Origin: Bacillota bacterium
GTDB lineage: Bacteria; Bacillota; Peptococcia; Peptococcales; BICA1-8
Assembly: GCA_049323895.1 (NCBI GenBank)
Contig: JBMOKT010000008.1
Location: forward strand, 12,985-76,984
Reading direction: 5' to 3'
Length of the DNA stretch: 64,000 bases
In this document: piece by piece, positions 2,446 to 58,154 of the stretch
Layout: each line of letters opens with the position of its first letter
Numbering within the stretch: the stretch's first letter is position 1
Translations under genes and position numbers: made by a program
Notes under the pieces: model-generated
Told to the model about the DNA's origin: nothing
The model's input: only the letters and a program-made list of their open reading frames with translations
Databases searched by the model: none

Positions 2446-2650
2446 ATTGTTTCCTCCTTTATTTTTTATTTTCTTGTTATTTTATTATAATCTAATTTTT
2501 CAGAATATTTAAATTGCTAATTTTTATCTAGCAATTGGATAGTTACTTATGGTACGAATAAGGGTTTTTTATGTTATATGCCCAACAAAAACGCACCTTT
2601 TTCAGGATTTTCCATATCCTATAGTAGTATTTTGAGAAAGGTGTGATAAG

Positions 2651-3250
2651 ATGAGCTGTAATATTAGAGTTTTAAATGCATGTGTAAATACTGAGTGTCT
2701 AGATATCCATTCCAACAACCAAATCCTTGCAGATCAATGTTCTTACAAATACATTTCCGATTATATCATCTTAGACTCAGGAGACCACATTTTCAAGGTA
2801 AATAAATCCAGCAACAAACACTATCCCATACTAAAGGCTTATACAAAGCTGGTGGATGACTCCTGCCATACCATAGTTGCTTCAGGTATAGGTGATGACA
2901 TTAATCTTTTTGTTGTTCCCGATGCCCACGTCTCCTTCCATACCGACAAGGCATATATTAGATTCGTAAATCTATCTCCTGATGCCGATGCTTTAGATTT
3001 TAGATTTACCAATAATAACTTTATCATGGTTAATGATGTTGAATACAAAGAGGTTACCCAGTACTACCCTGCTTCACCGGGAACCTATACGGTCAGAGGG
3101 TATTTAGCAGGAACAAAGATTGAAGTATTGGAAGTTCCCAACTTTACCATCAGGCGGGGTCGTGGCTATACCATATATATAGTAGGCTCGGTAAAAAATT
3201 TATATACCATGGGATATATTTTCTGTCCTGATGGAAGATATATGGATTAA
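2651..3250 (+). CDS. DUF4397-like domain protein
   Basis: ORF track, 199 aa. Repeated pattern IRFVNLSPDADALDF typical of DUF4397 as I recall it. Confidence 0.5.
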   Translation: MSCNIRVLNACVNTECLDIHSNNQILADQCSYKYISDYIILDSGDHIFKVNKSSNKHYPILKAYTKLVDDSCHTIVASGIGDDINLFVVPDAHVSFHTDKAYIRFVNLSPDADALDFRFTNNNFIMVNDVEYKEVTQYYPASPGTYTVRGYLAGTKIEVLEVPNFTIRRGRGYTIYIVGSVKNLYTMGYIFCPDGRYMD

Positions 3251-3310
3251 TATTGAAATGTACTAAACTATGTGCTAATATGAATTATGTAATTATTAAT
3301 TTCATAAATT

Positions 3311-3397
3311 ACTAGGGGAGCCGGTAGGGCCGGCTGAGAGTTGACCATCTAAGTCTAGACCCTTGACCTGATCTGGGTAATGCCAGCGTAGGGAAGT
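3311..3397 (+). promoter_or_regulatory. TPP (THI-box) riboswitch aptamer
   Basis: actaGGGGagcc...ggCTGAGAg...ACCCTTgaCCTGATCTGGgTAATGCCAGCGTAGGGAAg matches the conserved THI-box core. It sits directly upstream of thiW. Confidence 0.9.
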
Positions 3398-3406
3398 ATG
3401 TTTTTA

Positions 3407-3441
3407 CACCTTTCCCCTGCCTTGGGAAAGGTGTTATTTTA
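3407..3441 (+). terminator. Riboswitch expression-platform terminator
   Basis: cacctttccc / gggaaaggtg 10-bp stem with a 7-nt loop, followed by ttatttta. It lies between the aptamer and the thiW SD. Confidence 0.8.
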
Positions 3442-3463
3442 TTTAAAAGGAGATGATTGTTTA

Positions 3464-3964
3464 ATGGCAACAAAAAAATTAACCTTTTCCGCCTTGCTGG
3501 TGGCTATAGGGACTTTATTGGGTCATCTTATTTACATACCCGCCGGGGTAGCCAAATGTTTTCCTGTGCAGCATACAATAAATGTCCTCTCCGCCGTACT
3601 ATTGGGACCTGGTTATGCTGTAGCAAATGCTTTTGTTATTTCTCTGCTGCGCAATATCCTTGGAACGGGCTCACCCCTTGCCTTCCCAGGAAGTATGCTG
3701 GGCGCATTATTAGCGGGCTTTTTGTATACCAGGTATAAGAAGAATTCTGCTGCAGTAGCCGGTGAAATATTTGGAACTGGAATTTTAGGGGGTATCGCCG
3801 CCTACCCCATTGCCAAATATGTTTTAGGAAGTGAAGCAGCTGTGTTTTTCTTTGTTACACCGTTCTTAGTCAGTACCATCGGAGGAAGCATTATTGGTTT
3901 GTTTATAATTAAACTTCTAGAAAAGAACCAATGGGTACAGCAACAAGGTTTTTTAAGTAAATAA
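3464..3964 (+). CDS. thiW: ECF-transporter S component ThiW (thiazole precursor uptake)
   Basis: The track ORF 3398..3964 is trimmed to the ATG at 3464 (MATKKLTFSALL), which follows AAAAGGAG. The protein is a small polytopic membrane protein with QHTINV..LGPGYA..AFPGSMLGALLAG. It sits under a TPP riboswitch. Confidence 0.8.
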   Translation: MATKKLTFSALLVAIGTLLGHLIYIPAGVAKCFPVQHTINVLSAVLLGPGYAVANAFVISLLRNILGTGSPLAFPGSMLGALLAGFLYTRYKKNSAAVAGEIFGTGILGGIAAYPIAKYVLGSEAAVFFFVTPFLVSTIGGSIIGLFIIKLLEKNQWVQQQGFLSK

Positions 3965-4024
3965 AGGATTTAGGAATCAAAAATGGAATTATTATAAATT
4001 ATTTCTTAAACCTGGAGGTAAAAA

Positions 4025-4345
4025 ATGTTTGTAAAAAAAGGGCAGGGAAATTACATCCCCATGATTGAAGGTGTGAAAAGAAGAACACTTGCCTGCGGCG
4101 AAAAAACCTTGATGATTGAGGTGGAGTTGGCACAAGGAAGCAATATTCCGGGGCACAGTCATCTCCATGAGCAGACAGGTTATTTAGTTTACGGGAAAAT
4201 GATTTTTAATATTGATGGGCAGGAAACCGAAGTTAACCCAGGTGACAGCTGGGCAATACCGGGGAACGCCGTCCATAGCGTAAAAGTATTGGAGGATTCT
4301 TTCGCTGTGGAAGTTTTCTCTCCTGTCCGGGAGGACTATAAATAA
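4025..4345 (+). CDS. Cupin-domain protein
   Basis: 106 aa. GHSHLHEQTGYLVYG ... GDSWAIPGNAVHSV is a two-motif cupin signature. GGAGG upstream. Confidence 0.75.
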   Translation: MFVKKGQGNYIPMIEGVKRRTLACGEKTLMIEVELAQGSNIPGHSHLHEQTGYLVYGKMIFNIDGQETEVNPGDSWAIPGNAVHSVKVLEDSFAVEVFSPVREDYK

Positions 4346-4357
4346 AACGCCTAAATT

Positions 4358-4470
4358 TAGTGGCTAGTATTTAGAAAAAGAGGACTGGCGACTGGTGAAA
4401 TAATGCCGTTGACTATTAGCCGTTGACTCTTAACTATTGACCGTATACTAGTGTAACTTACACTAGTATA
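4358..4470. repeat. Family-A short tandem repeat patch (tagtggctagt; gactggcgactggtga; gttgactattagccgttgactcttaactattgacc) ending in an 11-bp-stem palindrome tatactagtgt/acactagtata
   Basis: Direct reading of the convergent intergenic region. Confidence 0.75.
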
Positions 4471-4471
4471 C

Positions 4472-4506
4472 AAAAAGTCCAGCCCTAGGCTGGACTTAAT
4501 TTTTTA
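4472..4506. terminator. Bidirectional intrinsic terminator between the cupin gene and trpP
   Basis: aaaaAGTCCAGCCctaGGCTGGACTtaatttttt: A-run, 9-bp GC-rich stem, T-run. Confidence 0.8.
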
Positions 4507-5034
4507 TTTAGTTATTTCCTGGGGACGGGACCTTTCCACAACCTGCTTGCTGAAGATAACAATGGGATAAAGAAGGGCGGCACCGATAGTATTGGCAACT
4601 GTTGCCGGTAGAACAACCGTTACGAATAATACTCCAAAGGGTGCTGGTATCCCTGCTAATGCCAAGGCTGACAATAAGAAAACAGTTCCGCTGAATACAG
4701 TCCCTACAGCCCCTATAATACCTGCTGTAATGGCTGAAGGCAATTTATTGTCCAGCATTTTTACCAGACCAAAAACAAACAAACTTGTAATCATTTTATC
4801 AATTAGGTTGGGAATCTGACCTGCGGGGAAAGTGGTGGTTAAAGCACAGATAATCCCGGCGACTCCACCTGCAAGCAGAGTAGATTTTAAATCCTTTTTG
4901 AGCAAAATAACGATAAACAGCATAGCCAAAAGTAAATCCGGCTTCATTCCTGCACCATAGCCGGGGACAATCAACCTCAGGATAAAACCAATAGCTAAAA
5001 GCAAACTAATTTGCGCAATTTCTCTAATACTCAT
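4504..5034 (-). CDS. trpP: Tryptophan transporter TrpP (YhaG family)
   Basis: 176 aa. GMKPDLLLAM, ALTTTFPAGQIPNLIDK and VVLPATVANT match my recollection of B. subtilis TrpP/YhaG almost motif for motif. Confidence 0.8.
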   Translation of the reverse strand: MSIREIAQISLLLAIGFILRLIVPGYGAGMKPDLLLAMLFIVILLKKDLKSTLLAGGVAGIICALTTTFPAGQIPNLIDKMITSLFVFGLVKMLDNKLPSAITAGIIGAVGTVFSGTVFLLSALALAGIPAPFGVLFVTVVLPATVANTIGAALLYPIVIFSKQVVERSRPQEITK

Positions 5035-5197
5035 CTAAACAATTCTCCTCTCAACTTTTCTCAACTAAACTTTTCTAAACTTCTTTGCAAAAACTAAACT
5101 TTACTAATCTCACTGTTCTTTCTCCCCTAAGCACCAGCTCCTTCTCAAATACTTATAAATAACTATAAATGTTTATCGAAGATTTTTCAATAACTTT

Positions 5198-6669: not shown

Positions 6670-8412
6670 TTAGTCTTCAATGGTGGAAAGGTCCCCTGTC
6701 GGCAGATTTAATTCCCAAGCTTTTAATACCCTTCTCATTATTTTCCCGCTGCGTGTTTTTGGCAGTTTATCCTTGAATTCTATTTCCTTGGGTGCAGAAT
6801 GAGCTGATAATCCTTTCTTGACAAATATGATAATTTCCTTCTTTAATTCTTCAGTTGCCTTATATCCTTCTCTTAGAGCGATAAAGGCTTTGATTACCTC
6901 TCCTCTAAGGGGATCAGGCTTGCCAATAACTCCTGCTTCAGCAACCGCCGGGTGTTCCAGCAGCTTATTCTCCACTTCAAAGGGTCCAACACGTTCTCCA
7001 GATGTATTTATTACGTCATCAATACGGCCTCTAAACCAAAAGTACCCTTCCTCATCCCGATATGCCGAATCTCCCGTAATATACCAGCCGGGAATCCGGA
7101 AGTATTCCTGATATTTCTGAGGGTTTTTCCATATTTGCCGCATCATGGAAGGCCATGAGATCTTTACAGCCAGGTTCCCCATTTGGTACGGCGGAAGTTC
7201 ATCTCCTTTATCATCAATAATAGCTGCTTCAATTCCGGGAATAGGTTTTCCCATTGAACCGGGTCTTATTTCCATGCCGGGGTAGTTGCATATCAGTTGT
7301 GCCCCGGTTTCTGTCATCCACCATGTGTCGTGAATACGCTGTTTATACACCTTTAGACCCCAGCGGATAACTTCAGGATTTAACGGTTCCCCCACGCTCA
7401 ACACATGGCGGAGAGAGGACAAATCAAACTTTGACACAGTTGCTTCCCCTGCCCCCATCAGCATACGAAACGCTGTGGGAGCACTATACCAAACGGTTAC
7501 TTTATATTCTTCAATGATAGCATACCAATCATTAGGGCTAAAGCGGCCACCGCGAATGACATTGGTAGCACCATTCAGCCAGGGGGCAAAAATACCGTAT
7601 GAAGTTCCGGTAACCCATCCCGGATCCGCTGTACACCAATAAATATCATCCTCACGCAAATCAAGTACAACTTTGCCGGTATAAAAATGCTGGATCATAG
7701 CATTATGAACATGGTAAACGCCTTTAGGCTTACCGGTAGAACCTGAAGTATAGTGGATGATTAGTCCATCTTCTCTATCAACCCATTCAATTTCCAGTTC
7801 TTCTGAAGACTTTTCCATTTCTTTTTCGAAATTATACTGGTTTGGCTCTAATTGATTTATTTCTCCTACCAAAATAATGTGCTTTAGACAGGGCAGCTCC
7901 CCTACCGGGATTCTGGACAGGAGCAAAGGTGTAGTAATGACGGCCACCGCTTCGCTGTCTTCCAGCCTGTCTTTTACCGCTGTTTCCATAAAGGCTTCAA
8001 ACAAGGGACCAACAATTGCACCAATTTTGACCGCACCTAATAGGGCAAAGTAAAGTTCAGGGGTCCGGGGCATAAAAATAAAAACTCGATCTCCTTTTCC
8101 TATACCTATTTTCTTTAAAACATTCCCTGCCTGATTTGATTTTTTCCTCATTTCCTCATAAGTATATTGCTCTTTCCTGTCACTATCGCTGTAATATAAG
8201 GCAATTTTATCCTTTTTTTCTGATTGGGCATGACGGTCAATTGCTTCATAAGCAATATTAACCTTACCAGTATTGAACCAGGAGAACTCCTGTTCTACTT
8301 CATTCCAAGAAAAGTTTGATCTTGCAGCATTATAATCCCCGAGATTTGATTTTTGTACCGAAACACCAATTGCTTTTTCTTTCAAAGTTTCCACCAGATT
8401 ACCTCCCTGCAT
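6670..8412 (-). CDS. acsA: AMP-forming acetyl-CoA synthetase (AcsA-type)
   Basis: 580 aa. YTSGSTGKPKG AMP-binding motif, WWMTETG, and a C-terminal GKIMRR. Divergent from acuA, as in Bacillus. Confidence 0.85.
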   Translation of the reverse strand: MQGGNLVETLKEKAIGVSVQKSNLGDYNAARSNFSWNEVEQEFSWFNTGKVNIAYEAIDRHAQSEKKDKIALYYSDSDRKEQYTYEEMRKKSNQAGNVLKKIGIGKGDRVFIFMPRTPELYFALLGAVKIGAIVGPLFEAFMETAVKDRLEDSEAVAVITTPLLLSRIPVGELPCLKHIILVGEINQLEPNQYNFEKEMEKSSEELEIEWVDREDGLIIHYTSGSTGKPKGVYHVHNAMIQHFYTGKVVLDLREDDIYWCTADPGWVTGTSYGIFAPWLNGATNVIRGGRFSPNDWYAIIEEYKVTVWYSAPTAFRMLMGAGEATVSKFDLSSLRHVLSVGEPLNPEVIRWGLKVYKQRIHDTWWMTETGAQLICNYPGMEIRPGSMGKPIPGIEAAIIDDKGDELPPYQMGNLAVKISWPSMMRQIWKNPQKYQEYFRIPGWYITGDSAYRDEEGYFWFRGRIDDVINTSGERVGPFEVENKLLEHPAVAEAGVIGKPDPLRGEVIKAFIALREGYKATEELKKEIIIFVKKGLSAHSAPKEIEFKDKLPKTRSGKIMRRVLKAWELNLPTGDLSTIED

Positions 8413-10391: not shown

Positions 10392-12194
10392 TCAGCCTTC
10401 TTGTACTGTATTTTTTCCGGCACGACCTGGGTAAGCACCTTCCTCCCGGGTTCCTAATAGTCCATCATATAAAGCCTGGACAAAGTCACCTTTGGCGGCT
10501 ACTTCTTTTAAAACAGCTGCAATGCCTGAGATAATTTCTTCCTTCCATAATTGGGCTTTTTCAGTTGCTTTAACCCCTGCACTTCCTAAGAACCTAAAGC
10601 TTTCTTGAACACCCCGCAAAGTATCAACCTTAGAAGGGACGCTGATGGGTCCGCCTGAATAAGCTTCATCTGCAGAAGCGATGGAAATTGCGTCTACCCC
10701 AAGTGCACTAGCCAGCATACCATGCAGTGAAGTTGCTAAACTTGATTGCACCCTGTCTTCAGTCTGGGTCAAAAATCCAATGGGTGCACCAGGCCAGATG
10801 GGAGCATTTATAATACTTCTTAAAGCCTCAATTTTCGCTGCATTAAAGTCCAGATAATTATCCTCCATTTGTCCGCCGATCATCATTTCCGGTGAATAAG
10901 CAAATAACGGCTGCAGGATGGGTCTGCCTCCCAGCTTTACCGCCAAATCCGCCATAATCAACATACCGGCAAAGGCTTTATAGGCAGGAACTCCCGTCAA
11001 TTCCTCATTGGTTACAATATCAAAAGGCATATTATATTTTGCAGCATATTTAATGGCATAATAGCCATCAACCGTTAAACGGGCAGGATCTGTACCGGCT
11101 GCCAGGGAGCCATAACATATATTTATTTTAGTCAAGTCTGCCCCTATTTTTCCTGCAAGGACTACTGTTTCAGGTGTATTTAAACCCCTGTGGGCTCTAA
11201 CCTGCCAAAGGGTAGATTTCTCTAAGGAATCGTAAATTCTTTTTAGATTTTCCGGGGTAATGACGGTTCCATCCTCCTGATGGGTTAGGTTCCCCCCCAG
11301 AAAACCTTCGGTGCGGGCGCCCCAGGATGGGTCAAAATGGACAACACCATCTACACCCCAAGCTTCACTTACTTTAATATGACCAATATCCATAAATGGA
11401 CAGCCTGTCCCATACTGATTCCAGACTATTGGGAGTTTTTTTGTATGCTGTAATTTTTTTACCTTCATATTTTTTTTGACTTCATTGATAAAGGAATGAT
11501 AACTGTCTAATTCGTCCCTTGTTAGTTCCCTTGTTTTAGGATGGATCTTACCCTCCAAATAATACTCCCGTGGAACCTGATCGCATAATTGGGGATATTT
11601 TGCAAGAAATTCTGTATTATCACCATTAAAAGTCCAAACTCCATCCCTTAGCTTTGCCCTCTCAACACCTGGAGAAGTCTTGTTTTTAGCCCAACTGATA
11701 ATCTGATTGCTTATTTTGTCAAGCAAATCACCAATATTCGCGTTGTAGTACCTATAATTATAGCCTTGAGTGATGTCGATTTTTTCCTTTCTTACTACTG
11801 CATCCTCAGGATTGTATTCCCGCCCTTCTACAAAGGCTAAGGCTTCTTCTACTGTGGTTCCTGGTCCAAAGCCGGCATCAAAACCTAACTCAGCCGCTAA
11901 TTCGGGGCGAATTGCCATCCCACCGATGCCGATCTTTACTTTTTCCCGCAACCCAGCAGCATCAGCCAGATCAACAAACCTTGCCAGCAATTCTGCTACA
12001 CCGTATCCTAAAGTTCTACTCAACAGCAGAGTATTGAATTGTTCATCCATAGCAATTCTGATTATTTCCTCCGGCGGTGTATCAGGCGGCAACAGCTTAG
12101 TTTCTATTCCCAATTCCTCAAGTGCCCGTTTAATCATTTTTAACCCTATATCATGAACAGGGTCTAAAGGGGACAATAATACCTTTTTGGACAT
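10392..12194 (-). CDS. Fusion protein: N-terminal B12-binding-like Rossmann domain plus a large C-terminal TIM-barrel-like domain (mutase/aminomutase-like)
   Basis: 600 aa. The N-terminal roughly 130 aa read LLSPLDPVHDIGLKMI...LLLSRTLGYG...KIGIGG, like a cobalamin-binding domain (HxxG retained, Asp shifted by one). The remainder is long alpha/beta sequence. Family assignment is not verified. Confidence 0.45.
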   Translation of the reverse strand: MSKKVLLSPLDPVHDIGLKMIKRALEELGIETKLLPPDTPPEEIIRIAMDEQFNTLLLSRTLGYGVAELLARFVDLADAAGLREKVKIGIGGMAIRPELAAELGFDAGFGPGTTVEEALAFVEGREYNPEDAVVRKEKIDITQGYNYRYYNANIGDLLDKISNQIISWAKNKTSPGVERAKLRDGVWTFNGDNTEFLAKYPQLCDQVPREYYLEGKIHPKTRELTRDELDSYHSFINEVKKNMKVKKLQHTKKLPIVWNQYGTGCPFMDIGHIKVSEAWGVDGVVHFDPSWGARTEGFLGGNLTHQEDGTVITPENLKRIYDSLEKSTLWQVRAHRGLNTPETVVLAGKIGADLTKINICYGSLAAGTDPARLTVDGYYAIKYAAKYNMPFDIVTNEELTGVPAYKAFAGMLIMADLAVKLGGRPILQPLFAYSPEMMIGGQMEDNYLDFNAAKIEALRSIINAPIWPGAPIGFLTQTEDRVQSSLATSLHGMLASALGVDAISIASADEAYSGGPISVPSKVDTLRGVQESFRFLGSAGVKATEKAQLWKEEIISGIAAVLKEVAAKGDFVQALYDGLLGTREEGAYPGRAGKNTVQEG

Positions 12195-12433
12195 TATTTA
12201 ACCTCCTCCCCTGAAAATAACCATCCATACCTATCACCAGATCTATGTAAATATGCCCTGGTCCTCACCCTGGCTCCAGGACCGATAAATTCCATAAATA
12301 CAATATCAACATCATCAAAGCCTAAATTCTTCATCATCTGCAGAGCCATTTTCTTCCCCTCTTCTTCGCTGTCACATACTAAAAATGTCTCTACATCCAA
12401 GGCATCCATTACCTTTTCTAAAACCTTAGCCAA
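12194..12433 (-). CDS. Small (79 aa) protein translationally coupled to the B12-domain protein
   Basis: TTG start with GGAGGG 6 nt upstream. Its stop TAA overlaps the downstream ATG (TAATG). Confidence 0.55.
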   Translation of the reverse strand: MAKVLEKVMDALDVETFLVCDSEEEGKKMALQMMKNLGFDDVDIVFMEFIGPGARVRTRAYLHRSGDRYGWLFSGEEVK

Positions 12434-12527
12434 CTAAGACCCTCCTTTACCTCAATATAATCAATCAATAATTTCTCTAGTAAAGTTTTCCCTAATTTTA
12501 AAATAAAAATGTGGATTTTTAAAAAAT

Positions 12528-12668
12528 AGTTACTAGTGACTGGTGACTGGTGACTTGTAAGTCTTAGACTTAACCTTAAAATACCGGAGTCGTATACTAG
12601 TAGGTATTATAGTTGATGGTCAATAGTTGATGGTCAATAGTCAATGGTCAGGTAGTAAATAGTGACCG
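12528..12668. repeat. Family-A tandem repeat patch: (ACTGGTG)x3, then (TTGATGGTCAATAG)x2.5
   Basis: tagttactagtgactggtgactggtgacttg ... atagttgatggtcaatagttgatggtcaatagtcaatggtcagg, read directly. Confidence 0.85.
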
Positions 12669-15671: not shown

Positions 15672-15731
15672 CTAGTCACTAGCAACTAATAGCTTTTTAC
15701 TAGCCACTAGCGACTAACAACTAGCCACTAA
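15672..15731. repeat. Family-A heptamer patch in inverted orientation (ctagtcactag..., tactagccactagcgactaacaactagccacta)
   Basis: Direct reading. It is the reverse complement of the TAGTGGC-type arrays and abuts the stop of the PLP gene. Confidence 0.8.
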
Positions 15732-17192
15732 TTAAAGCACCCCTGCATGCTTACATACAATCTCAATAAGTTTAACCAAAGCTCTCACGGCAATTCTCAT
15801 TCTGTCAGGGATTAGATTTCCATCGTCATCAGTAGTACCTAAACCGGTAGAAATATAGATGTTGCCATCGTAAGCAATTGTTGGAATTACACCAAATTTA
15901 GTCATCCCGGTTTGTAATATATTTGTTCCGGAATACATATCTTCGATGGAGAAGATAGGAATACCCATTTGTCCATTTTTCCAAGTGCCTTCGTAGTTTA
16001 CTTCCACAGCTGTAGAATTATATACCTTGGTTATCTTAATGCCATCTCTAAACTTAGCTGGGATATTCTTGAATTCTTCAACAACAATATCATACATTTC
16101 ATCAACAGGCTTAGTTAACACTTCAGGTTTATCACGCAGAACTTTTAATGCCTGCAGTTGAGTCAGCAAGGCTTCTTTACCTGGGTCAAAGGTTACATAT
16201 GCTGCTTTACCATAGGAGGATGGAGTTCCCCAACGGTCTCCATGCATACCTAGAGCGCGGCGGATAGGAACCATTACTTCTTCTTTTCCTATAATTAGTC
16301 CACTGGTGGCTGCTCCTGTGGCTTTATCCATACTGTAAGTAATTACGTCGCAATCAATTTTCACGGGGTCAATGCCTACGAAGGGAAGACCCCAGGCATT
16401 GTCAATTACATATGGTACATTATAGGAGTGTGCCAAGTCCGCAATATATTTGCAAAGTAATGGAGTGCCTTCCTCATCTTTAACTCCATAACCGTAACCA
16501 GGTGAAGGATAACCTAAAGAGGTAAAGCCTGTTAAAAATGCTTCGTGGATTTCAGCATGCAGGGCAATTCTTTCAATAGCCGCTTCCGGGTCAACTTCCG
16601 CTAGAAGTGGAACTGGATGGTTCTTAATTCCGTGGACTTCATACTTTGCACCTTCGAGTGGAACGATTACAGTATCAAGATTGTTTTGTCTCTTGCCATA
16701 GAAGCCTAACTCACCTGCAGTTGAACCCCTGTCGGCAAATAAATCCTTATATTTTCCCGGGAAAGGACGTCCATAACTGCCTTGGTGATGTAAATGCTTT
16801 TCATAGGGAGCAATATACCTTGCCCGGTAGTTGTCACCTCTTCCCTGCATGGGAGGTGTAAACAGGGTATCAAAGCAAGTCCAGAGAGTTGCTTCACAGG
16901 TACTGGTGGATGCAGCTTCCCAGCCATCACCATAAACATCTTTTACTACTTCCCTGATTTCATCCATTAATTTTGCCAGGGGAATTACTTCTTTGGCTCC
17001 GACTTCACCAGCTTCCAAAATATCTTTTCTTAAAGGAGCAGGACAACCTGAAATTGCACCGGTCAATCCAAACCTACCCCTAATCTCATGGGGAACACCA
17101 ATTTCATCTGCAGCCTTGGCTGCATCGGCATATATTTCAGGAACTTTGGCATGAAGCTGTTTGTACATTTGATATTTATATTTAGGACTCAT
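15732..17192 (-). CDS. Fold-type-I PLP enzyme of the SelA/DgaE-like group (possible ammonia-lyase or aminotransferase)
   Basis: 486 aa. YSMDKATGAATSGLIIGKEE resembles the PLP-lysine region of SelA-like proteins. AAGGAGG upstream. Confidence 0.5.
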   Translation of the reverse strand: MSPKYKYQMYKQLHAKVPEIYADAAKAADEIGVPHEIRGRFGLTGAISGCPAPLRKDILEAGEVGAKEVIPLAKLMDEIREVVKDVYGDGWEAASTSTCEATLWTCFDTLFTPPMQGRGDNYRARYIAPYEKHLHHQGSYGRPFPGKYKDLFADRGSTAGELGFYGKRQNNLDTVIVPLEGAKYEVHGIKNHPVPLLAEVDPEAAIERIALHAEIHEAFLTGFTSLGYPSPGYGYGVKDEEGTPLLCKYIADLAHSYNVPYVIDNAWGLPFVGIDPVKIDCDVITYSMDKATGAATSGLIIGKEEVMVPIRRALGMHGDRWGTPSSYGKAAYVTFDPGKEALLTQLQALKVLRDKPEVLTKPVDEMYDIVVEEFKNIPAKFRDGIKITKVYNSTAVEVNYEGTWKNGQMGIPIFSIEDMYSGTNILQTGMTKFGVIPTIAYDGNIYISTGLGTTDDDGNLIPDRMRIAVRALVKLIEIVCKHAGVL

Positions 17193-17214: not shown

Positions 17215-17278
17215 TAGTGACTAGTGACTAGTCTTTTATTAGTAGTTAGTGGCTAGTGGCTAGTGGCTAGTTGGCTAG
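17215..17278. repeat. Family-A heptamer array: (TAGTGAC)x2, then (TAGTGGC)x3-4
   Basis: tagtgactagtgactagtcttttattagtagttagtggctagtggctagtggctagttggctag. It starts 4 nt upstream of the SD of the PLP gene. Confidence 0.9.
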
Positions 17279-17513
17279 AAAACGCGTTTCGCCATGAATG
17301 ACTAGCTTACTTGACGTGACATCATTAACCGTTGCTTCATTTGAAAAAATATATTCTTGCGTTAGTGATAATATATTTGGTCGGAGATTGCTTCAATCGC
17401 AAGCTCATTCGCAATGACAGGGTTAAAAATGCCGACCTATAATGAAACCTGTTAGACGTCATGCCTTTTTACAGTTAACTCGCCCACTGACATTCTGATT
17501 AACCTTTAAGCTA

Positions 17514-21907: not shown

Positions 21908-22030
21908 TTATTTTTGTAAGCTCTTTGGTGTCTTAGGTTGATAGTTCCACCAAGTACAAGCAAAAGAGGAACTGATTGTTGCAAGCAACATTAATAGAGT
22001 AGAAATACCTACAAATAATGATTTTTTCAT
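21908..22030 (-). CDS. agrD: AgrD-like autoinducing-peptide precursor (40 aa): MKKSLFVGISTLLMLLATISSSFACTWWNYQPKTPKSLQK
   Basis: Not in the ORF track (<60 aa); translated by me. Its ATG overlaps the agrB stop (ATGA). It has an amphipathic leader, a single Cys followed by TWWN, then a Pro-containing charged tail (YQPKTPKSL) like clostridial AgrD. Confidence 0.75.
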   Translation of the reverse strand: MKKSLFVGISTLLMLLATISSSFACTWWNYQPKTPKSLQK

Positions 22031-22611
22031 TCTTGTACACCTCCTTTATTATTTAAGATGGGTATAAGAGTCAATGATTGGTAAAATATACCCAAAACAA
22101 TACTTAATTTCAAAACATTTGAATTTAAAACAAAATAAATAATAGTTGAAACTATCATAATAGATAATGAAGTTATTTTTAATTTTCTTTTAAAAGAAAG
22201 AGAAATTATTGGTTTTGCAGGGCTGTCTTGGGGAGCAAAACAAAAAACCAGAACAAAACTTAAAATAAGGAATAAAAAACTATAATTTACAAAAACAGTG
22301 AATAATAAATATTTATTTATAAATATACCAATTAATGTATATACTGCTGTTCCAAAAAATAAACATTTGAGAGGGGAGTCAAAATGAAAACCTCCGGATA
22401 CCTTTCTCAACAAACCGCCGAATATTGCAGCAACTGAAGCCGGAATTAGAGCTTCAAAAACAAAGGAAACAGCTACAATTAACAAAAATCCTCCCAGTTG
22501 CACAATAATATTTTCTATTGAATAAGCAATGATTTCTTTTTTTTCTTCATCATAGTTAAGTTCTTTTGTAATGAAATCAGTTAAAAATATACTCATTCTA
22601 GAATAAGTCAT
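22027..22611 (-). CDS. agrB: AgrB, accessory gene regulator B (AIP-processing membrane peptidase)
   Basis: 194 aa, polytopic. LLRKVSGGFHFDSPLKCLFFG carries the His-x6-Cys pair, spaced as in S. aureus AgrB H77/C84. Confidence 0.85.
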   Translation of the reverse strand: MTYSRMSIFLTDFITKELNYDEEKKEIIAYSIENIIVQLGGFLLIVAVSFVFEALIPASVAAIFGGLLRKVSGGFHFDSPLKCLFFGTAVYTLIGIFINKYLLFTVFVNYSFLFLILSFVLVFCFAPQDSPAKPIISLSFKRKLKITSLSIMIVSTIIYFVLNSNVLKLSIVLGIFYQSLTLIPILNNKGGVQE

Positions 22612-22615
22612 CTTT

Positions 22616-23059
22616 TCACCTTTTTCTAAAATAGTTTATAGAATATGGAATTAGAAATAATAGTATAACATATGGAAGAGAAATAATAATACGCATTCTA
22701 ATATCATAAGATAGAACTTCAGAAGAAACGTTTAGTATTTTAATCATTGTACTTGTAGATATGGTTTCTACTATAATCAAAATTAATATTGTACTAATAC
22801 TTACGACAATCGCCTTATTAATGCTAACTTCACCATACTTACTTACAATAAAAAATAATAAACCTATCGCAATGATTGTATGAACTCCAAAGGTAACAGG
22901 CATAAGTCTAATTAAATAGGATGATAGTGATAAAATGACACCAAAAGTAATTATTACTTTTATATTTAACTTTGATTTACTTAAAACTAAAGCTAGATAA
23001 ACAAGAAATATATTTTCAGGCACACCTAGAAACAACCATACTATAAAAGGCATCTTCAT
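22616..23059 (-). CDS. Polytopic membrane protein (147 aa), first gene of the agr unit
   Basis: 4-5 TM segments. Its stop is 4 nt from the agrB start. It resembles a stand-alone membrane sensor module; no kinase domain. Confidence 0.55.
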   Translation of the reverse strand: MKMPFIVWLFLGVPENIFLVYLALVLSKSKLNIKVIITFGVILSLSSYLIRLMPVTFGVHTIIAIGLLFFIVSKYGEVSINKAIVVSISTILILIIVETISTSTMIKILNVSSEVLSYDIRMRIIISLPYVILLFLIPYSINYFRKR

Positions 23060-23486: not shown

Positions 23487-24326
23487 TTAGTACTCAGGGG
23501 GCAGGTCTTTTAGCTGCTCCATGGTAAATACCGGTCCATCCAGACAAACATAACATGAACCAATATTGCAGCGCCCACATTTTCCAATACCGCATTTCAT
23601 TCTCATTTCTAAAGTGGTAATAATATCAGTATCAGCAAAATTCATCTTCTTTAGACCTTGCAAAGTAAACTTAATCATGATGGGAGGTCCGCACAAGATG
23701 GTAACCTGGGGCTTGGGAGCAAGCTCCTCAACGTATGAAGGTACAAAACCCACATGCCCATCCCAGCCTTCTTCTTCCCTGTCGATTGTTACACAAACAT
23801 CCATATTGGGAACCTTGGGCCAATTTTCAAATAAGTCTTCTTTGAAACACAGGTCTCCTTTGCTTCTGGCACCATAAACAACTGTTAACTTGCCAAAGTC
23901 ATCCCGGTTTTTTACACAGTGCATAATCAGACTGCGTACAGGTGCCAGCCCTATACCGCCACCGATAAAGAGAATATCCTTCCCTTTACAGTAGTCTATA
24001 GGAAAACCATTGCCGTATGGTCCGCGAATACCCACTTCCTGCCCGACTTCTATTTCATGCAAGGAATTAGTCAATTGACCTACAGCCCTAATTGCCATTT
24101 CTATATGATTTTCACCCTTATTAGTGATAGAAAACATGCCTTCGCCTATAGCAGGCATTGATAGCATCCCCAACTGACCAGGCGCAGGGTCAAAAGGTAT
24201 TTTGCCATCTATGGTGCTGATGTGAAAGGTTTTTACATCATGGGTTTCCTGGACAATATCGATAATTTTCCCTCTTATAGGTACTAGAGGATTAATTCTT
24301 TTCACCTCTTCAGGAGTAATTGCCAA
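23487..24326 (-). CDS. FlxA-like FAD/NAD(P)-binding oxidoreductase with a C-terminal [2Fe-2S] motif (AsrB/HydG-like)
   Basis: 279 aa. TTG start with GGAGGG 6 nt upstream. GGGIGLAP nucleotide-binding motif. C-terminal CGIGKCGRCNIGSCYVC. Confidence 0.7.
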   Translation of the reverse strand: MAITPEEVKRINPLVPIRGKIIDIVQETHDVKTFHISTIDGKIPFDPAPGQLGMLSMPAIGEGMFSITNKGENHIEMAIRAVGQLTNSLHEIEVGQEVGIRGPYGNGFPIDYCKGKDILFIGGGIGLAPVRSLIMHCVKNRDDFGKLTVVYGARSKGDLCFKEDLFENWPKVPNMDVCVTIDREEEGWDGHVGFVPSYVEELAPKPQVTILCGPPIMIKFTLQGLKKMNFADTDIITTLEMRMKCGIGKCGRCNIGSCYVCLDGPVFTMEQLKDLPPEY

Positions 24327-24345
24327 TCTTCTCCCTCCTTTTCAT

Positions 24346-24476
24346 TAGTGGCTAATGTTAGTGGCTAGTTGTTAGTGGCTAGTGGCTAGTAAATAGTTAC
24401 TGGTGACTGGTGACTGGTGACTGGTTACTGGTTACTAGACAACGGTCGATGGCTAATAGTCGATAGCCAATAGCTA
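24346..24476. repeat. Family-A array block: (TAGTGGC)n, then (ACTGGTG/ACTGGTT)n, then cgatggctaatagtcgatagccaatagc
   Basis: ttagtggctaatgttagtggctagttgttagtggctagtggctagtaaatagttactggtgactggtgactggtgactggttactggttactag..., read directly. It starts 6 nt upstream of the flxA-like SD. Confidence 0.9.
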
Positions 24477-24563
24477 TATTTTTAAAAGCTGATTTACCAC
24501 GCTCCTGTTATTAGCTGGTAATAACAAATCCGTTGAATCTCAGTCCGCAAAGCAAAATCTAAT

Positions 24564-24603
24564 CTTTTTCTGTAGCCACTGTAGACACTGTAGCTACTGT
24601 AGG
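24564..24603. repeat. Family-A nonamer array CTTTTTCTGTAGcca CTGTAGaca CTGTAGcta CTGTAG
   Basis: Direct reading; it ends 11 nt from the stop of the flxB-like gene. Confidence 0.9.
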
Positions 24604-24614
24604 TTCTATTAGGT

Positions 24615-25604
24615 CTACGCTTCCTGTATCTTCTTAATAACAGACGTTATATCAAGGTTCACGGGGCATTTGGTTACACAACGTCCGCATCCTGTGCATA
24701 AAAGCATATTATACCTCTCTGGGAAGTAACGAAGCTTGTGCAAGAAACGGTTCCTGACCCGTTCCTTCTTGCCCGGTCTGGGCTGGTGTCCGCCGGCCAT
24801 CATTGTATATTCGTCAAACATACAGCAGTCCCAGCAGCGTATTTTGACTCCATCTTCCCCCCGCACTTCATTGGCAATGTCAAAACAGTGGCAGGTTGGA
24901 CATACATAGGCACAGGCACTGCAGTTCAGACATTTGCGGGAAATATCATCCCAGATGGGGTGGTCAAACATATCTTTCAGCTTCTCAGGAACACCTTCTA
25001 CATCTGCAGCCAGGGTGAACTCTCCCACCGCCGGAATAGCTGCATCTTCCTCTTGCAGAAGTCCGGAAACTTTATTTAGTATCTCTGTTCCCTTGTCAGA
25101 AAGAGGCTCAAACCCTATTTTCTCGCCTAAATCATAAGCTTGGATATCCGCACCTTGTCCTTTTTGAGGGTCTATACCCATAGATGAACAAAAGCAGGAA
25201 GCCATTGGTTTTACACAGCTTAAAGCGATAAAAATACTGCGATCCCTTTTTTCCTGATAATAGGGGTCTACAAAACCTTTAGTTAGAAAAACTTGGTCTA
25301 GGCAATCTATACTCTTCATATCACAGGAACGTACTCCAAATAGAACCTGAGTTTCTTTTTCACCGGGTATTTCTTCAATTTCCAGTGACTGATCCTTAGT
25401 CTTAAACTTATACATTTTCTCCGTTTGAGGGAAGAAAATATCCTTGGGAGGCATAACTACATTTTCCTCCAGGGCCAGTTCAACATCCTGCTGGTAAGGA
25501 GCAAACCTGGTGACTCCTTGGAATTTAGCAGGGACTAAGACCTTATATTCCTTGGCCAGTGATTCTAAAAACTGGGGTAAATTAGCCTTGGCTATAGTTT
25601 TCAT
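24615..25604 (-). CDS. FlxB-like iron-sulfur protein (AsrA/HydB-like 4Fe-4S dicluster protein)
   Basis: 329 aa. CLNCSACAYVCPTCHC and CTGCGRCVTKCP ferredoxin-type motifs. Confidence 0.65.
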   Translation of the reverse strand: MKTIAKANLPQFLESLAKEYKVLVPAKFQGVTRFAPYQQDVELALEENVVMPPKDIFFPQTEKMYKFKTKDQSLEIEEIPGEKETQVLFGVRSCDMKSIDCLDQVFLTKGFVDPYYQEKRDRSIFIALSCVKPMASCFCSSMGIDPQKGQGADIQAYDLGEKIGFEPLSDKGTEILNKVSGLLQEEDAAIPAVGEFTLAADVEGVPEKLKDMFDHPIWDDISRKCLNCSACAYVCPTCHCFDIANEVRGEDGVKIRCWDCCMFDEYTMMAGGHQPRPGKKERVRNRFLHKLRYFPERYNMLLCTGCGRCVTKCPVNLDITSVIKKIQEA

Positions 25605-25616
25605 CCTAACACCTCC

Positions 25617-26516
25617 CTACATAAATTCTTCTGGGTCATCTTTATCAAAGTGACCTAAAGGAAGTTTACCTTGCGGATCAATACCGGCATCATACTCACC
25701 AAACAAATCATTTATATCCTTAATAAGCTTTTTATTTAACAGCATAATGGGTATGTCCATGGGACAAGCCCTTTCACACTCACCACATTCAATACATCTG
25801 CCGGCAACATGCATAGCCCGGGTCAGAGCAAAGAACTGGTTTTCTGACGAGTTGTTAGCCTTGCCTATCCAGCCCACTCTTGTCTGGTCAAAAATACACT
25901 CCCGGCAGCTGCAGGCAGGACATACATTGCGGCAGGCATAACAACGCAAGCACCTTTCATACTGTTTGGTCCAAAATTCATATTTCTCATCAGGTGTCAT
26001 TTCCTCCAAGGCTTTAACATCTGAATAGTCTACTGCCTCTTTGGTAGCTGCTACCTCTTTCAGGGCTTGGGCATCTCCAATAAAATAATCATAAACTACA
26101 GGATTGGGATATTTGCATTCCACACATTTTTGTGCTGCAGGAATATCGCCCCCTGCACCAAGTTCCTTGGCTTTATCCTGGTCTTTTAAACCATGACACG
26201 GTATGCCGATAAGGATTACCTTGTCCCGCTCAATCTGCTTATCCTGTAACAATCTATTAAAGGCACGGGCGTCACAGCCCTTAACAAAAACTGCTGCTTT
26301 CCCCTCATGGGTGGTATACTCTGTTAAATACTTGCTTAAATTATTGTGGCAATAGTCATCCCAGACAAGCCTTGCCGCGTCTTCGGGTTTATCAATGAAG
26401 GCTGGCGGGGACAAATACCAAAAAGTACCCTTTTCCCAACCAATAACAACCTCAGCTTCACCTTTTTCCAAAATTTCCCGGGCAATGTCTTGCATTTTTT
26501 TGGTTATCTCATTCAT
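25617..26516 (-). CDS. FlxC-like iron-sulfur protein
   Basis: 299 aa. CLRCYACRNVCPACSCRECIF and CIECGECERACP motifs. Overlaps mvhD by 4 nt. Confidence 0.6.
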   Translation of the reverse strand: MNEITKKMQDIAREILEKGEAEVVIGWEKGTFWYLSPPAFIDKPEDAARLVWDDYCHNNLSKYLTEYTTHEGKAAVFVKGCDARAFNRLLQDKQIERDKVILIGIPCHGLKDQDKAKELGAGGDIPAAQKCVECKYPNPVVYDYFIGDAQALKEVAATKEAVDYSDVKALEEMTPDEKYEFWTKQYERCLRCYACRNVCPACSCRECIFDQTRVGWIGKANNSSENQFFALTRAMHVAGRCIECGECERACPMDIPIMLLNKKLIKDINDLFGEYDAGIDPQGKLPLGHFDKDDPEEFM

Positions 26517-28923: not shown

Positions 28924-29807
28924 GCAGTATCCCTCCTGCCTTCAGCCTCAACCAGCTTTTTGGCTAAACTCACAGCATCCACAAAATGCTTATTTAAACC
29001 TAATTCTCCCGGATTCATACCAAGGGCTAAACCCATCAATTCAGTAAAATAAAATACAGGCAGCTTGTAATCTTTACCAAACTTAGCCTCTACCTGGGTT
29101 TGACGCATGTCAAGGTTATTCATGCATAAGGGGCAAGCTGTGGCAATGCAGTCTGCTCCGGCATCCTTAGCTGCTGTTAAAATTTTCTCAATCATGGAGA
29201 AACCAACCTCGGATTTGGTAGTAGCATGGGCTGCTCCACAGCACTCGGTCTTAAAGGCCCAGTCTACAGGGGTCCCCCCCATGGCTTTAACTAAATTATC
29301 CATGCTTTGAGGATCTTCCGCGTCATCAAAACCCAATTTGGGCGGGCGTACCAAAAGGCATCCGTAATAACTTGCAACCTTTAAATCCTTTAGAGGATTA
29401 TTAACCAGAGTGTTTACAGCTTCCAGACCTAAGTCATTGACAAACACATCTAATAAGGCCCTGGCTTTGGCTTTTCCGGTATATTCCCGTTCAATTACTT
29501 CATTAATGGTATTTCTCATTTCCATTGACTGGCTGGCTTCCACCTCTGTCGCTTTGCATCTGGCATAACATGCAGCACAAGGAATTGCTACATCCAACCC
29601 TTTTGCCTCGGCAATAGCCAGATTCCTGGCGGGCAAGGCCAATGCCAGCAGATGGTCTGTTAAATGGGCACTGGAGGCGCCGCAGCAGTTCCATTCGGGA
29701 ATTTCCCAAAGCTCAATACCTAAAGCAGCAGCAACTTTTTTGGTGGATATATCATATTCAATTCCGGTGGAACTCAAGGAACATCCTGGGTAATATGCAT
29801 ATTTCAT
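28920..29807 (-). CDS. hdrB: Heterodisulfide reductase subunit B-like (two CCG domains)
   Basis: 295 aa. WNCCGAS and TECCGAAH CCG motifs. Confidence 0.85.
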   Translation of the reverse strand: MKYAYYPGCSLSSTGIEYDISTKKVAAALGIELWEIPEWNCCGASSAHLTDHLLALALPARNLAIAEAKGLDVAIPCAACYARCKATEVEASQSMEMRNTINEVIEREYTGKAKARALLDVFVNDLGLEAVNTLVNNPLKDLKVASYYGCLLVRPPKLGFDDAEDPQSMDNLVKAMGGTPVDWAFKTECCGAAHATTKSEVGFSMIEKILTAAKDAGADCIATACPLCMNNLDMRQTQVEAKFGKDYKLPVFYFTELMGLALGMNPGELGLNKHFVDAVSLAKKLVEAEGRRDTA

Positions 29808-30373
29808 ACCTTTCCACCCCGCTTCCGGACATTAGCAAATATCTTCTTTACTTCCCCGTTATCTTTGATTGTATGGGGCAGTGGAGATAATTTTCCTTTT
29901 AACAGCATACTGGGACCAAAGTGGGCATCTTTAAGAGGCTGCATGCTGAAAATATTAAAGCCCAGTATTAAACCCATTTCGTGTACACGTCCATGATTTT
30001 CTACAGATTTTAAGAAGAGATTATGGAAGATGTCCATTTTCTTTTCAGTGATATAGCCTTTTTTCTTAGCTATAATCCTTAAAGTCTCCATTACCCGGGC
30101 TATGTCAACTTCTCTGGGACACCTGGTTGAACAGGTATCGCAGCTAGCACAGAGCCAGATAGTATGAGAATGCAAAGCATCATCCATAAGCCCCAGCTGT
30201 ACTAACCGCATTATTTCCCGGGGAGTTTTATCCATCGCAAAAGCAACAGGACACCCGGCTGAACATTTACCACACTGATAGCATTTTGAAGCCCTAACGC
30301 CGCTTTCTTGTGTCACCTCGGCTAAAACCTCTTGCCCTTTGGCTAAAGCAGCAGTTAGTTCAATCCTTTCCAT
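29804..30373 (-). CDS. hdrC: Heterodisulfide reductase subunit C-like (4Fe-4S dicluster)
   Basis: 189 aa. CYQCGKCSAGCP and CASCDTCSTRCP motifs. GGAGG upstream. Confidence 0.85.
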   Translation of the reverse strand: MERIELTAALAKGQEVLAEVTQESGVRASKCYQCGKCSAGCPVAFAMDKTPREIMRLVQLGLMDDALHSHTIWLCASCDTCSTRCPREVDIARVMETLRIIAKKKGYITEKKMDIFHNLFLKSVENHGRVHEMGLILGFNIFSMQPLKDAHFGPSMLLKGKLSPLPHTIKDNGEVKKIFANVRKRGGKV

Positions 30374-45421: not shown

Positions 45422-45462
45422 CTTTTTCTGTAGTACTGTAGTTACTGTAGCACTGTAGTCAC
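45422..45462. repeat. Family-A nonamer array CTTTTTCTGTAGta CTGTAGtta CTGTAGca CTGTAGtca
   Basis: Direct reading; it ends 16 nt from the copZ stop. Confidence 0.9.
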
Positions 45463-45478
45463 TTACCACAAAGAATTA

Positions 45479-50675: not shown

Positions 50676-50814
50676 CTCTTAAAAACATAGTAATTGAAAT
50701 ATTTTATCATAATATGGTAATGGAAGTATTTTATCATAATAGGTATTGAATATCTTGTCGAAATTAGTAATTATGTAAAGAAGAAATTGTTTATCATATA
50801 AAAATGTTGCCGTA

Positions 50815-56809: not shown

Positions 56810-57259
56810 TTAACCCGAGTTTAGATATTTATTTAAAACTTCACGTGGGAAGAATCTGCCTGGACACTGGGTATTGCTGCCTGGAATTTCTTTGTGTGTT
56901 TCAATTTTTTCCACAGGAATGTTATAAACCCTTTGCAGCTTTTTAATTAAATTCACCAAACCCTTTAACTGCTCCGGTCCAACGCTGTCATACTCAAAAT
57001 TTCCTATCAAACAAATCCCTATTGCCGTAAAATTCCTATTGCCGGCCCGGGTATGAGCTCCAATTTTATCTAGGGGTCTCCCTACCTCCACTTTCCCATC
57101 GGGAAGTACTACATAGTGGTAGCCAATATCACTCCAGCCTCGTTCATTAACATGCCACCCCCTGATCATTTCCCCATCTACACTTACCCATTTTTCACCC
57201 CGCCAAAAACCTCGAGGGCTGGCGGAATGATGGATTACTATTTCCCGCCATTTAACCAT
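56810..57259 (-). CDS. N-acetylmuramoyl-L-alanine amidase (amidase_2/PGRP fold)
   Basis: 149 aa. IVIHHSASP, GWSDIGYHYVV, GAHTRAGNRNFTAIGICLIGNF. Confidence 0.85.
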   Translation of the reverse strand: MVKWREIVIHHSASPRGFWRGEKWVSVDGEMIRGWHVNERGWSDIGYHYVVLPDGKVEVGRPLDKIGAHTRAGNRNFTAIGICLIGNFEYDSVGPEQLKGLVNLIKKLQRVYNIPVEKIETHKEIPGSNTQCPGRFFPREVLNKYLNSG

Positions 57260-57413: not shown

Positions 57414-57414
57414 T

Positions 57415-57633: not shown

Positions 57634-57650
57634 GTAAACCCTCCTTTTAT

Positions 57651-57731
57651 TAGTAGTGGCTAGTTGTTAGTGGCTAGTGGCTAGTGGCTAGTAAGGATTA
57701 GTTACTGATGTCTAGTGCCAGGTGACTGGTA
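57651..57731. repeat. Family-A array block: (TAGTGGC)n, then gttactg/gtgactggt
   Basis: tagtagtggctagttgttagtggctagtggctagtggctagtaaggattagttactgatgtctagtgccaggtgactggt. It starts about 5 nt upstream of the SD of the Zn-ribbon gene. Confidence 0.9.
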
Positions 57732-57825
57732 TATGTATGGAAGTATGAGAGTGGGAAAGTTTAATAGTTTGATATGTAGGGGGAGGTTTCCATGCCGCCC
57801 CCCCACAAATAAAACTTCCTTCTAT

Positions 57826-57870
57826 CTTTTTCTGTAGCTACCGTAGTCACTGTAGATACTGTAGCTACTG
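57826..57870. repeat. Family-A nonamer array CTTTTTCTGTAGcta CcGTAGtca CTGTAGata CTGTAGcta CTG
   Basis: Direct reading; it ends 22 nt from the stop of the DUF2922 gene. Confidence 0.9.
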
Positions 57871-57892
57871 ATTCAGATGCCTTTCAACTACC

Positions 57893-58117: not shown

Positions 58118-58154
58118 TTATTTCACCTCCCTACTAAAAATAATTTTGCATTTC

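Follow-up and report, generated by a model that had tools for sequence, protein, structure and literature searches.

The 64-kb window examined here (the whole stretch of DNA that was analysed, from contig JBMOKT010000008.1 of a Bacillota metagenome-assembled genome, MAG) carries an hdrCBA-mvhD-flxCBA gene set on its minus strand, in which the flxB-like and flxA-like genes are separated by 288 nt of non-coding, repeat-bearing DNA (24327-24614, Table 1). The gene names are backed by Pfam domains, including those of hdrB, hdrA and mvhD (HdrB CCG, HdrA and MvhD/FlpD), which lie between hdrC and the flxC-like gene, and in the Flx complex (FlxABCD-HdrABC) the FlxA subunit is obligate. The first-pass annotation of this DNA had set the 288-nt gap against overlaps or at most 12 nt at the other junctions of the set, and this is exact by the ORF (open reading frame) coordinates, the remaining hdrCBA-mvhD-flxCB junctions measuring -4, -4, -10, -4 and +12 nt. 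Our comparisons covered the 64-kb window, fetched contigs with FlxA homologues, and loci from genome and metagenome scans.

In the order in which it would be transcribed, the gap leads from the flxB stop through four modules, here called A to D, with a unique spacer between A and B, and ends in a Shine-Dalgarno (SD) sequence before the TTG start of flxA. This block layout had been described before and needs a single correction, i.e., 12 nt rather than 11 follow the stop. All four arrays are reported by TRF (ACTGGTG x5.4 with a 96% match, TAGTGGC x6.6, a 14-mer x2.1 and a 9-mer x3.7). Module A consists of (CTACAGNNN)x3 followed by CTACAG and AAAAAG, a make-up shared with 57826-57870 and 45422-45463. 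Inserting CA into CTAGTGG, which is CCACTAG (the D unit) in reverse complement, gives its nonamer CTACAGTGG, and module A is therefore a diverged inverted copy of D; the nonamer was absent from every other locus that we fetched. The repeat units are one step apart from each other (CACTAGC, CACTAGT, CACCAGT, AACCAGT, CAATAGT). In the sense direction none of CTAGCCA, CTAACCA, CACCAGT, AACCAGT and CACTAGT contains a start codon, and CTAGCCA, CTAACCA and CACTAGT place stops in all three frames, whereas CACCAGT has neither stops nor starts; module D as a whole is free of start codons and offers TAG or TAA in every frame. No unit in the gap has a GGG run, so that G-quadruplexes are not expected. Other potential for pairing includes one 25-nt inverted repeat (72% complementary), one 10-nt palindrome and, as the only hairpin seen in the spacer, a weak AU-rich one (about 24505-24527) with a stem of 8-9 bp and no U-tract.

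The same junction looks very different in most relatives. FlxA relatives belong to Gracilibacter, Syntrophobotulus, Dehalobacter and Peptococcaceae, and in three of the fetched contigs (L003, L004 and L005, with FlxA identities of 85%, 84% and 83%) flxB and flxA lie 1, 1 and 0 nt apart, while the outgroups show 0 nt (Syntrophobotulus glycolicus), 0 nt (a Peptococcaceae MAG) and -11 nt (Desulfitispora alkaliphila). The closest relative (L002, FlxA identity 88%) is the only one examined with a gap, of 246 nt, which can be aligned to the gap in the window only over its final heptamers and ribosome-binding site. Given that six relatives have at most 1 nt at this position and that the content of the L002 gap is unrelated, the gap is a derived and fast-evolving insertion. 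The first-pass annotation had itself proposed comparing the junction in related genomes and had counted a lack of the spacer there, in part, against its reading; six of them do lack it, and the spacer is not a unit that goes with the flx gene set. The sole other contig with an identical FlxA (L001, Logan SRR32167787) opens within the D array, at 60 nt upstream of the flxA gene.

In L003, L004 and L005 the junction reads ...ATAAAGGAGGCGGAATAAGATG, which places the ribosome-binding site inside the last flxB codons. The window and L002 retain this end of flxB with the site eroded from GGAGG to GGAAG (CAGGAAGCG vs AAGGAGGCG), and both have acquired a new AAAGGAGGG before the flxA start. The start codon differs in parallel, being ATG at the tight junctions of L003, L004 and L005, TTG in the window and GTG in L002. 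At the level of sequence, these comparisons show a translationally coupled ancestral junction, with stop and start 0-1 nt apart, which has been opened in the clade of the window and L002 by a derived insertion, and they show a flxA gene that now has a strong ribosome-binding site of its own to start from (GGAGGG, 6 nt, TTG). A second site with module A, past an HMA gene, gives a similar picture, as the orthologous 3' regions in L002 and L003 have a plain terminator and module A was not found in them. Being missing from both the junction and the HMA 3' sites of relatives, the arrays are young, lineage-specific and quick to turn over.

Table 1. Genes, repeat modules and related features of the window, the flx gap and its surroundings first.
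Feature	Position	Strand	Remarks
hdrC	29804-30373	(-)	Pfam HdrC-like Fer4
flxC-like ferredoxin-type gene	25617-26516	(-)	Pfam Fer4
flxB-like ferredoxin-type gene	24615-25604	(-)	Pfam Fer4
TAG stop of flxB-like gene	24615..24617	(-)	then 12 nt before module A
Module A: CTACAGTAG CTACAGTGT CTACAGTGG CTACAG AAAAAG	24564..24602	(-)	G-type arm near stop
Unique AT-rich spacer, about 90 nt	24475..24563	(-)	
Module B: 14-mer x2, CTATTGGCTATCGA / CTATTAGCCATCGA	24445..24474	(-)	two heptamers each
Module C: AACCAGT x2 + CACCAGT x3	24399..24436	(-)	period 7, 96% match
Module D: CTAGCCA array with CTAACAA and CTAACAT interruptions	24345..24390	(-)	C-type arm near start
GGAGGG Shine-Dalgarno	24333..24338	(-)	6 nt after module D, 6 nt before TTG
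TTG start codon of flxA-like gene	24324..24326	(-)	
flxA-like gene, TTG start	23487-24326	(-)	Pfam NAD_binding_1/DHODB_Fe-S_bind
Second full element: A, G/C hairpin, degenerate C, D, SD	57634..57892	(-)	between DUF2922 gene and 72-aa ORF
Solo module A	45422..45463	(-)	begins 15 nt past stop of HMA gene
Solo D + (CACTAGT)x2	17215..17285	(-)	directly upstream of SD of gene 15732..17192
Inverted D (TTAGTGGCTAG...TAGTAAAAAG)	15693..15731	(-)	directly past stop of gene 15732..17192
B-type (TTGACCATCAACTA)x3, then C-type (CACCAGT x2, CACTAGT)	12527..12663	(-)	upstream of ORF 12194..12433
B, C, D in order	4360..4440	(-)	between convergent genes

The blocks are by no means confined to the flx operon. 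Seven intergenic regions of the window bear arrays, the gap included, all of the arrays being in non-coding DNA, and the units CTAGCCA, CACTAGT, NACCAGT and CAATAGT recur at multiple loci together with heptamer-derived 14-mers. Analogues of module B are found at 12609-12663 and 4405-4432 and those of module C at 12527-12560 and 4390-4400; wherever at least two blocks co-occur, their order on the transcribed strand is A .. B, C, D. The recurrence of this order in the gap near 57 kb, noticed in the first pass, is borne out, with A, C and D present in the same sequence. When the two gaps are aligned, module A plus AAAAAGAT and module D are near-identical base for base and the middles are unrelated, and CAGAAAAAG closes the CTACAG (module A) arrays at three of the three window sites. 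The second full element is housed in a cluster of small genes (56810-58379, minus strand) encoding DUF1659, DUF2922, a 72-aa Cys-rich ORF, a 61-aa hydrophobic ORF and Amidase_2. The solo module A is followed by a GC-rich hairpin and TTTT, terminator-like by eye and uncalled by the consensus scan, and the 4360-4440 block, when read on the plus strand, forms a G-type arm past the stop of a cupin gene, with a bidirectional terminator adjoining at 4475-4497.

Placement relative to genes is equally regular, i.e., G-type arms lie 0-15 nt past stops (24602, 57870, 45463, 15731 and 4346+) and C-type arms 4-10 nt before ribosome-binding sites (24345, 57654 and 17215). The genes beside the arrays have a housekeeping character and no function in common (flxA, a DUF2922 cluster, a GIDA-like oxidoreductase and TrpP). 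The earlier view of a modular intercistronic unit is thus supported in part: the sequence is non-random and its blocks recur in order and strand, but the unit is not tied to the flx gene set.

The analysis also covered about 230 loci (L006-L267) gathered by genome and metagenome scans. A scan with ACTAGCCACTAGCCACTAAC of one genome per species matched more than 110 stretches, in Negativicutes, Clostridia, Peptococcales, Acidobacteriota, Planctomycetota, Chloroflexota, Cyanobacteria, Bacteroidota, Alpha- and Gammaproteobacteria, Verrucomicrobiota/Kiritimatiellae, Fibrobacterota and others, and a scan of metagenomes with CCACTAACAACTAGCCACTA matched more than 120 contigs. Period-7 arrays number 136 in the fetched loci, against at most 8 for any other period between 5 and 11. 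Inverted pairs of arms occur 34 times (29 + 5) in the order 5'-(YTAGTGG)n .. (CCACTAR)n-3' and never the other way round, an arrangement that would fold into just as good a hairpin; their spacers measure 17-144 nt in the genome-scan set. Starts of long ORFs follow the C-arm 67 times and the G-arm 28 times (p = 8e-5), and stops are followed by the G-arm 88 times and by the C-arm 40 times (p = 3e-5), two comparisons that depend on each other through antisense ORFs in high-GC DNA. All start-proximal units of the family lack ATG, GTG and TTG in sense and most of their complements contain GTG or TTG, the start-codon-free orientation prevailing by 24 to 8. Start-codon avoidance as a cause of the polarity fits the family; arrays outside it go in the right direction but without significance (7 to 3, p = 0.34), and we set the idea aside.

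The nearest parallels come from three low-GC Peptococcales-type contigs (L055, L110 and L266), which share the block vocabulary, the polarity and the stop-to-SD layout at non-orthologous sites. In L055 (Peptococcaceae UBA3933), a stop is followed by TTAGTGGCTAG x2, GAAAAAA, a spacer, CTAGCCACTAGCCACTAAC, a ribosome-binding site and ATG; this lies upstream of a murD-like gene, and the layout recurs one gene upstream (regions 1000-1330 and 3480-3800, apparently within a cell-wall (mur) operon). L110 has three cases of the layout, and L266, a metagenome contig (GC 0.38) syntenic with 2600-5070 of the window, has a G-type arm directly past the stop of the cupin gene and, at another place, a B-C-D composite. 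The C-arm of this Peptococcales-type lineage regularly ends in CACTAA + A/T + AAGGAGG. A stepwise series is seen within a single array of L009 (Megasphaera sp. WILCCON 0056; minus strand, about 7570-7760), where the units pass through CCACGAG, CCACGAA, CCACTAA, CCCCTAA, CCCCTAG and CCACTAG, a gradient that looks like point mutation followed by expansion, in layers.

Neither the recurrence of one word nor a shared variant should be overinterpreted. Recurrence is to be expected for many heptamer classes in so large a database, and in a viral collection the D heptamer was counted 7 times against 3, 1, 10 and 11 for arbitrary controls, whose arrays may be coding heptads. As arbitrary heptamer arrays are about as frequent there, the wide recurrence of CCACTAG is no evidence that it is special, and we dropped the notion of D as a specially conserved pan-bacterial word. 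Similarly, the CTAACAA interruption shared by arrays is weakened as proof of copying within the genome, the variant being widespread in metagenomes.

What, then, does the gap do in the operon? Consensus scans gave no sigma-70-type promoter and no intrinsic terminator within 24327-24614, no ORF of at least 20 aa is present in any frame of the gap, and Rfam yielded nothing at the gathering score there (the only hit by E-value was to a plant miRNA model, E = 0.32). A curated structured RNA (riboswitch, leader or small RNA) is not supported, given the lack of an Rfam match and an unexceptional fold, the whole-gap z-score being -0.83 relative to shuffles, and nothing in the gap pointed to a structure for RNA processing. 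Because neither a consensus promoter nor a terminator is seen, the spacer is most likely co-transcribed with the operon. The explanation that we favour, and hold to be somewhat better than an even bet, is that the gap is a spacer of polar repeats, tolerated and co-transcribed, which uncouples the translation of flxA, an effect offset by the gene's own ribosome-binding site. It is not a flx-specific regulator, it is a lineage-specific heptamer-repeat insertion of the STRR / LSSR5-11 type in uncultured low-GC Bacillota. We envisage that the arrays would grow and shrink by slipped-strand mispairing and that modules could be spread or homogenised between intergenic regions by recombination. Selection at the level of RNA or translation may then filter their orientation, keeping start-proximal arrays free of ATG, GTG and TTG, with stops in all frames of the D units, and leaving their complements just past stops. 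Once transcribed, the imperfectly complementary A and D may zip into an intercistronic stem with the middle looped out, which may serve as a barrier to 3'-exonucleases or as an insulator, as proposed for the hupS/hupL STRR hairpins. The effect on the operon is probably small, i.e., translational uncoupling of FlxA plus a compensating ribosome-binding site, and the gap is probably not a dedicated regulatory switch.

Several observations weigh against this explanation. Consensus scans are blind to non-sigma-70 promoters and to Rho-dependent termination. The GC skew of the plus strand is negative nearly throughout the window, which makes the minus strand the leading one, and it is on the minus strand that most genes and all sense-oriented arrays sit; with gene and replication directions coinciding, transcription-relative polarity is inseparable from replication-relative polarity in the window. 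The start-codon-free filter is significant neither for non-family arrays nor within the gap. The proposed pairing of arms is met by the unremarkable fold of the whole gap, and also by the 57-kb copy, whose A:D pairing is not significant (32 of 300 shuffles equally good). Finally, slippage plus drift alone would predict less regularity than is seen in the B-C-D order, conserved between loci and between species, and in the close spacing of the arrays (12 nt from the stop, 6 nt from the ribosome-binding site), which hints at a composite dispersed element or at a function.

A function at the RNA level is the alternative that fares best, although we still deem it unlikely. The A:D stem would here shield the upstream hdr-flxDCB message from 3'-exonucleases, or else restore coupling by placing the flxB stop beside the ribosome-binding site of flxA, thereby setting the FlxA:FlxBCD ratio. 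The duplex in the flx gap is stable (-20.6 kcal/mol, about 4 standard deviations below the shuffles at -9.3 +/- 2.8, with 1 of 300 equally good), the G-then-C order of arms holds 34:0 across phyla, and hairpins of the hupS/hupL STRR have been proposed to act in this manner (PMC2670836). However, both folding results just given speak against a dedicated stem, as do the absence of the element in six relatives with the same operon and the existence of solo A or solo D modules with no partner to pair with. A bolder proposal, which we regard as slightly more doubtful still, is that (YTAGTGG)n .. (CCACTAR)n forms one pan-bacterial, gene-direction-aware intercistronic module and not just independent products of slippage. 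It is based on the roughly 230 loci in more than 10 phyla, with G-arms at stops, C-arms at starts and the invariable order of the pairs. Since the C-arm so regularly ends in the AAGGAGG-bearing motif given above, the element may carry its own ribosome-binding site; if so, it could invade coupled junctions (flxB|flxA, mraY|murD) without killing the downstream gene, and one would have to consider either a conserved function in RNA (insulator, anti-Rho sequestration of the C-rich arm, exonuclease barrier) or a machinery that generates arrays.

Two further alternatives are improbable, and to a similar degree. In the first, the arrays bind an RNA- or DNA-binding protein, which would define, along the lines suggested for TAACTGA repeats, a regulon acting post-transcriptionally across the genome. 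HutP-type ring proteins bind UAG every 7 nt, a spacing offered by the module D array, and arrays with a fixed orientation 4-10 nt upstream of ribosome-binding sites are present in the window and in L055, L110 and L266; proteins that bind heptamer arrays have also been proposed by MacGregor 2015 (PMC4679880) and in a Nostoc preprint. On the other hand, no protein emerged as a candidate, the neighbouring genes have nothing in common functionally, copy number and unit sequence vary freely, and the arrays are missing at orthologous sites of relatives with 85-88% FlxA identity. In the second, there are two transcription units, with hdr-flxDCB ending past module A and a flxA promoter in the unique spacer. 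The terminator-like hairpin after module A at 45422-45463, the G/C hairpin after module A at 57634-57892 and the AT-rich composition of the spacer fit this scheme. Against it stand the lack of a sigma-70-like promoter or intrinsic terminator in the consensus scan of the gap and the nature of its only hairpin (AU-rich, short-stemmed and without a U-tract), and a separate unit for flxA is not expected on general grounds, given that FlxA is obligate in the Flx complex.

Very improbable, finally, is a MITE-/BIME-like non-autonomous element with A and D as terminal inverted repeats and a junction duplication explaining the second AAAGGAGG: A and D are imperfect inverted repeats that bound both full copies, and both the ancestral junction and the stretch downstream of the L002 gap contain ATAAAGGAGG..GAATA. 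We nevertheless reject the model, because the two full copies have unrelated middles. Modules often stand alone, the 30 window ORFs scanned with Pfam include no transposase or RAYT, the viral collection has arbitrary heptamer arrays about as often as the D unit, and a target-site duplication is indistinguishable from the ribosome-binding-site consensus of this genome, which AAAGGAGG matches and which is also present at 57640, 17200 and 12440.

Seen as a tolerated polar spacer, the gap has close counterparts among known repeats. Literature searches for its unit strings gave no match. It belongs to the polar intergenic heptamer repeats, a known class to which it adds a representative in Bacillota. 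The local peculiarities are several unit families in fixed order, one arm turned into a 9-mer, and a canonical ribosome-binding site after start-proximal arrays. The cyanobacterial STRR include hairpin-forming 7-bp repeats between hupS and hupL, for which a role in transcript stability or translational coupling was suggested (PMC2670836). As in these, the units in the gap are tandem 7-bp sequences of several families, dispersed in intergenic DNA, able to form hairpins and positioned between genes for subunits of a redox enzyme; unlike them, they occur in a Bacillota MAG and not in a heterocystous cyanobacterium, are not identical in unit, have the 9-mer CTACAGNNN as one arm, and place a strong ribosome-binding site after start-proximal arrays. 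The canonical STRR units are 1-2 nt off (CACCAGT vs CCCCAGT, CTACAGT vs CAACAGT, and TTGGCTA/ATGGTCA vs TTGGTCA).

The polarity itself has a precedent in GGGAATC (Xanthomonas) and GGGGAYT (Nostoc), where the coding strand carries the G-rich sequence up to 50 nt past stops and the non-coding strand carries it in the last 50 nt ahead of starts, with inverted pairs and with transcription of the repeats (Rehm et al. 2015, PMC4692102). Stop/start polarity, inverted pairs and intergenic heptamers are all shared with the gap; in contrast, the gap units have no runs of three or more G, and the Xanthomonas repeats are conserved in position between species, whereas the insertion in the gap is absent in near relatives. 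TAACTGA repeats of marine Beggiatoaceae occur in 2-6 copies upstream of starts, in one orientation and with stops in all frames; their phylogenetic distribution is patchy and a translational role was proposed (MacGregor 2015, PMC4679880). Module D likewise forms forward arrays before starts with stops in all frames. It differs in unit and in belonging to a gap with several unit families in fixed order, and the Beggiatoa arrays mostly replace the ribosome-binding site, whereas GGAGG follows every start-proximal array here. More generally, the LSSR5-11 of Mrazek (2007), in the account given by PMC4679880, are dominated by heptamers in prokaryotes, are typical of non-pathogens with large genomes and reflect a general tendency to expand by slippage. 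The head-to-tail, non-coding units found beyond chance at many loci (seven in 64 kb) agree with that framework, which in the account cited is silent on the order, polarity and composite modules seen in the gap. There is also a looser likeness to better-known extragenic elements. REP/BIME in enterobacteria and BOX in pneumococci are modular, lie after stops inside operons and can form stems that affect the fate of the mRNA. The gap is similarly extragenic, probably transcribed and mosaic, with modules of variable copy number; it is distinct from REP/BIME in its direct heptamers, in having neither a palindrome of ~35 bp, nor sequence similarity, nor a conserved full-length element, and in the lack of a RAYT among the Pfam-scanned ORFs.

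The junction thus offers a natural example of a coupled operon junction pried open by repeats, with the ribosome-binding site leaving the upstream gene and the start weakened from ATG to TTG or GTG, and it bears on how the stoichiometry of an operon for a flavin-based electron-bifurcating complex tolerates such insertions. The stop/start polarity rule, seen before in Xanthomonas, Nostoc and Beggiatoaceae, also comes to include Bacillota and, via the CCACTAR unit, many phyla, which argues for a general constraint on bacterial gene expression rather than a lineage-specific regulator. On the practical side, such arrays break short-read assemblies, as the Logan contig ending inside the D array illustrates, and can mislead the prediction of operons and gene boundaries in MAGs.

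A few other features of the window deserve mention. Directly downstream of flxA are AgrB and an unannotated 147-aa ORF (22027-23059, minus strand), and in relatives AgrB is followed by a 40-aa ORF (12185-12307 in L002, 12025-12147 in L003), a candidate AgrD autoinducer-peptide precursor. Tandem duplications of AT-rich 27-nt units (x2) are present at 22637-22688, at the 3' end of the 147-aa ORF, and at 50690-50745, just upstream of a MASE3-PAS histidine kinase. Lastly, a thiamine pyrophosphate (TPP) riboswitch (RF00059, 74 bits) at 3304-3411 on the plus strand overlaps the listed start of the ORF at 3398-3964.

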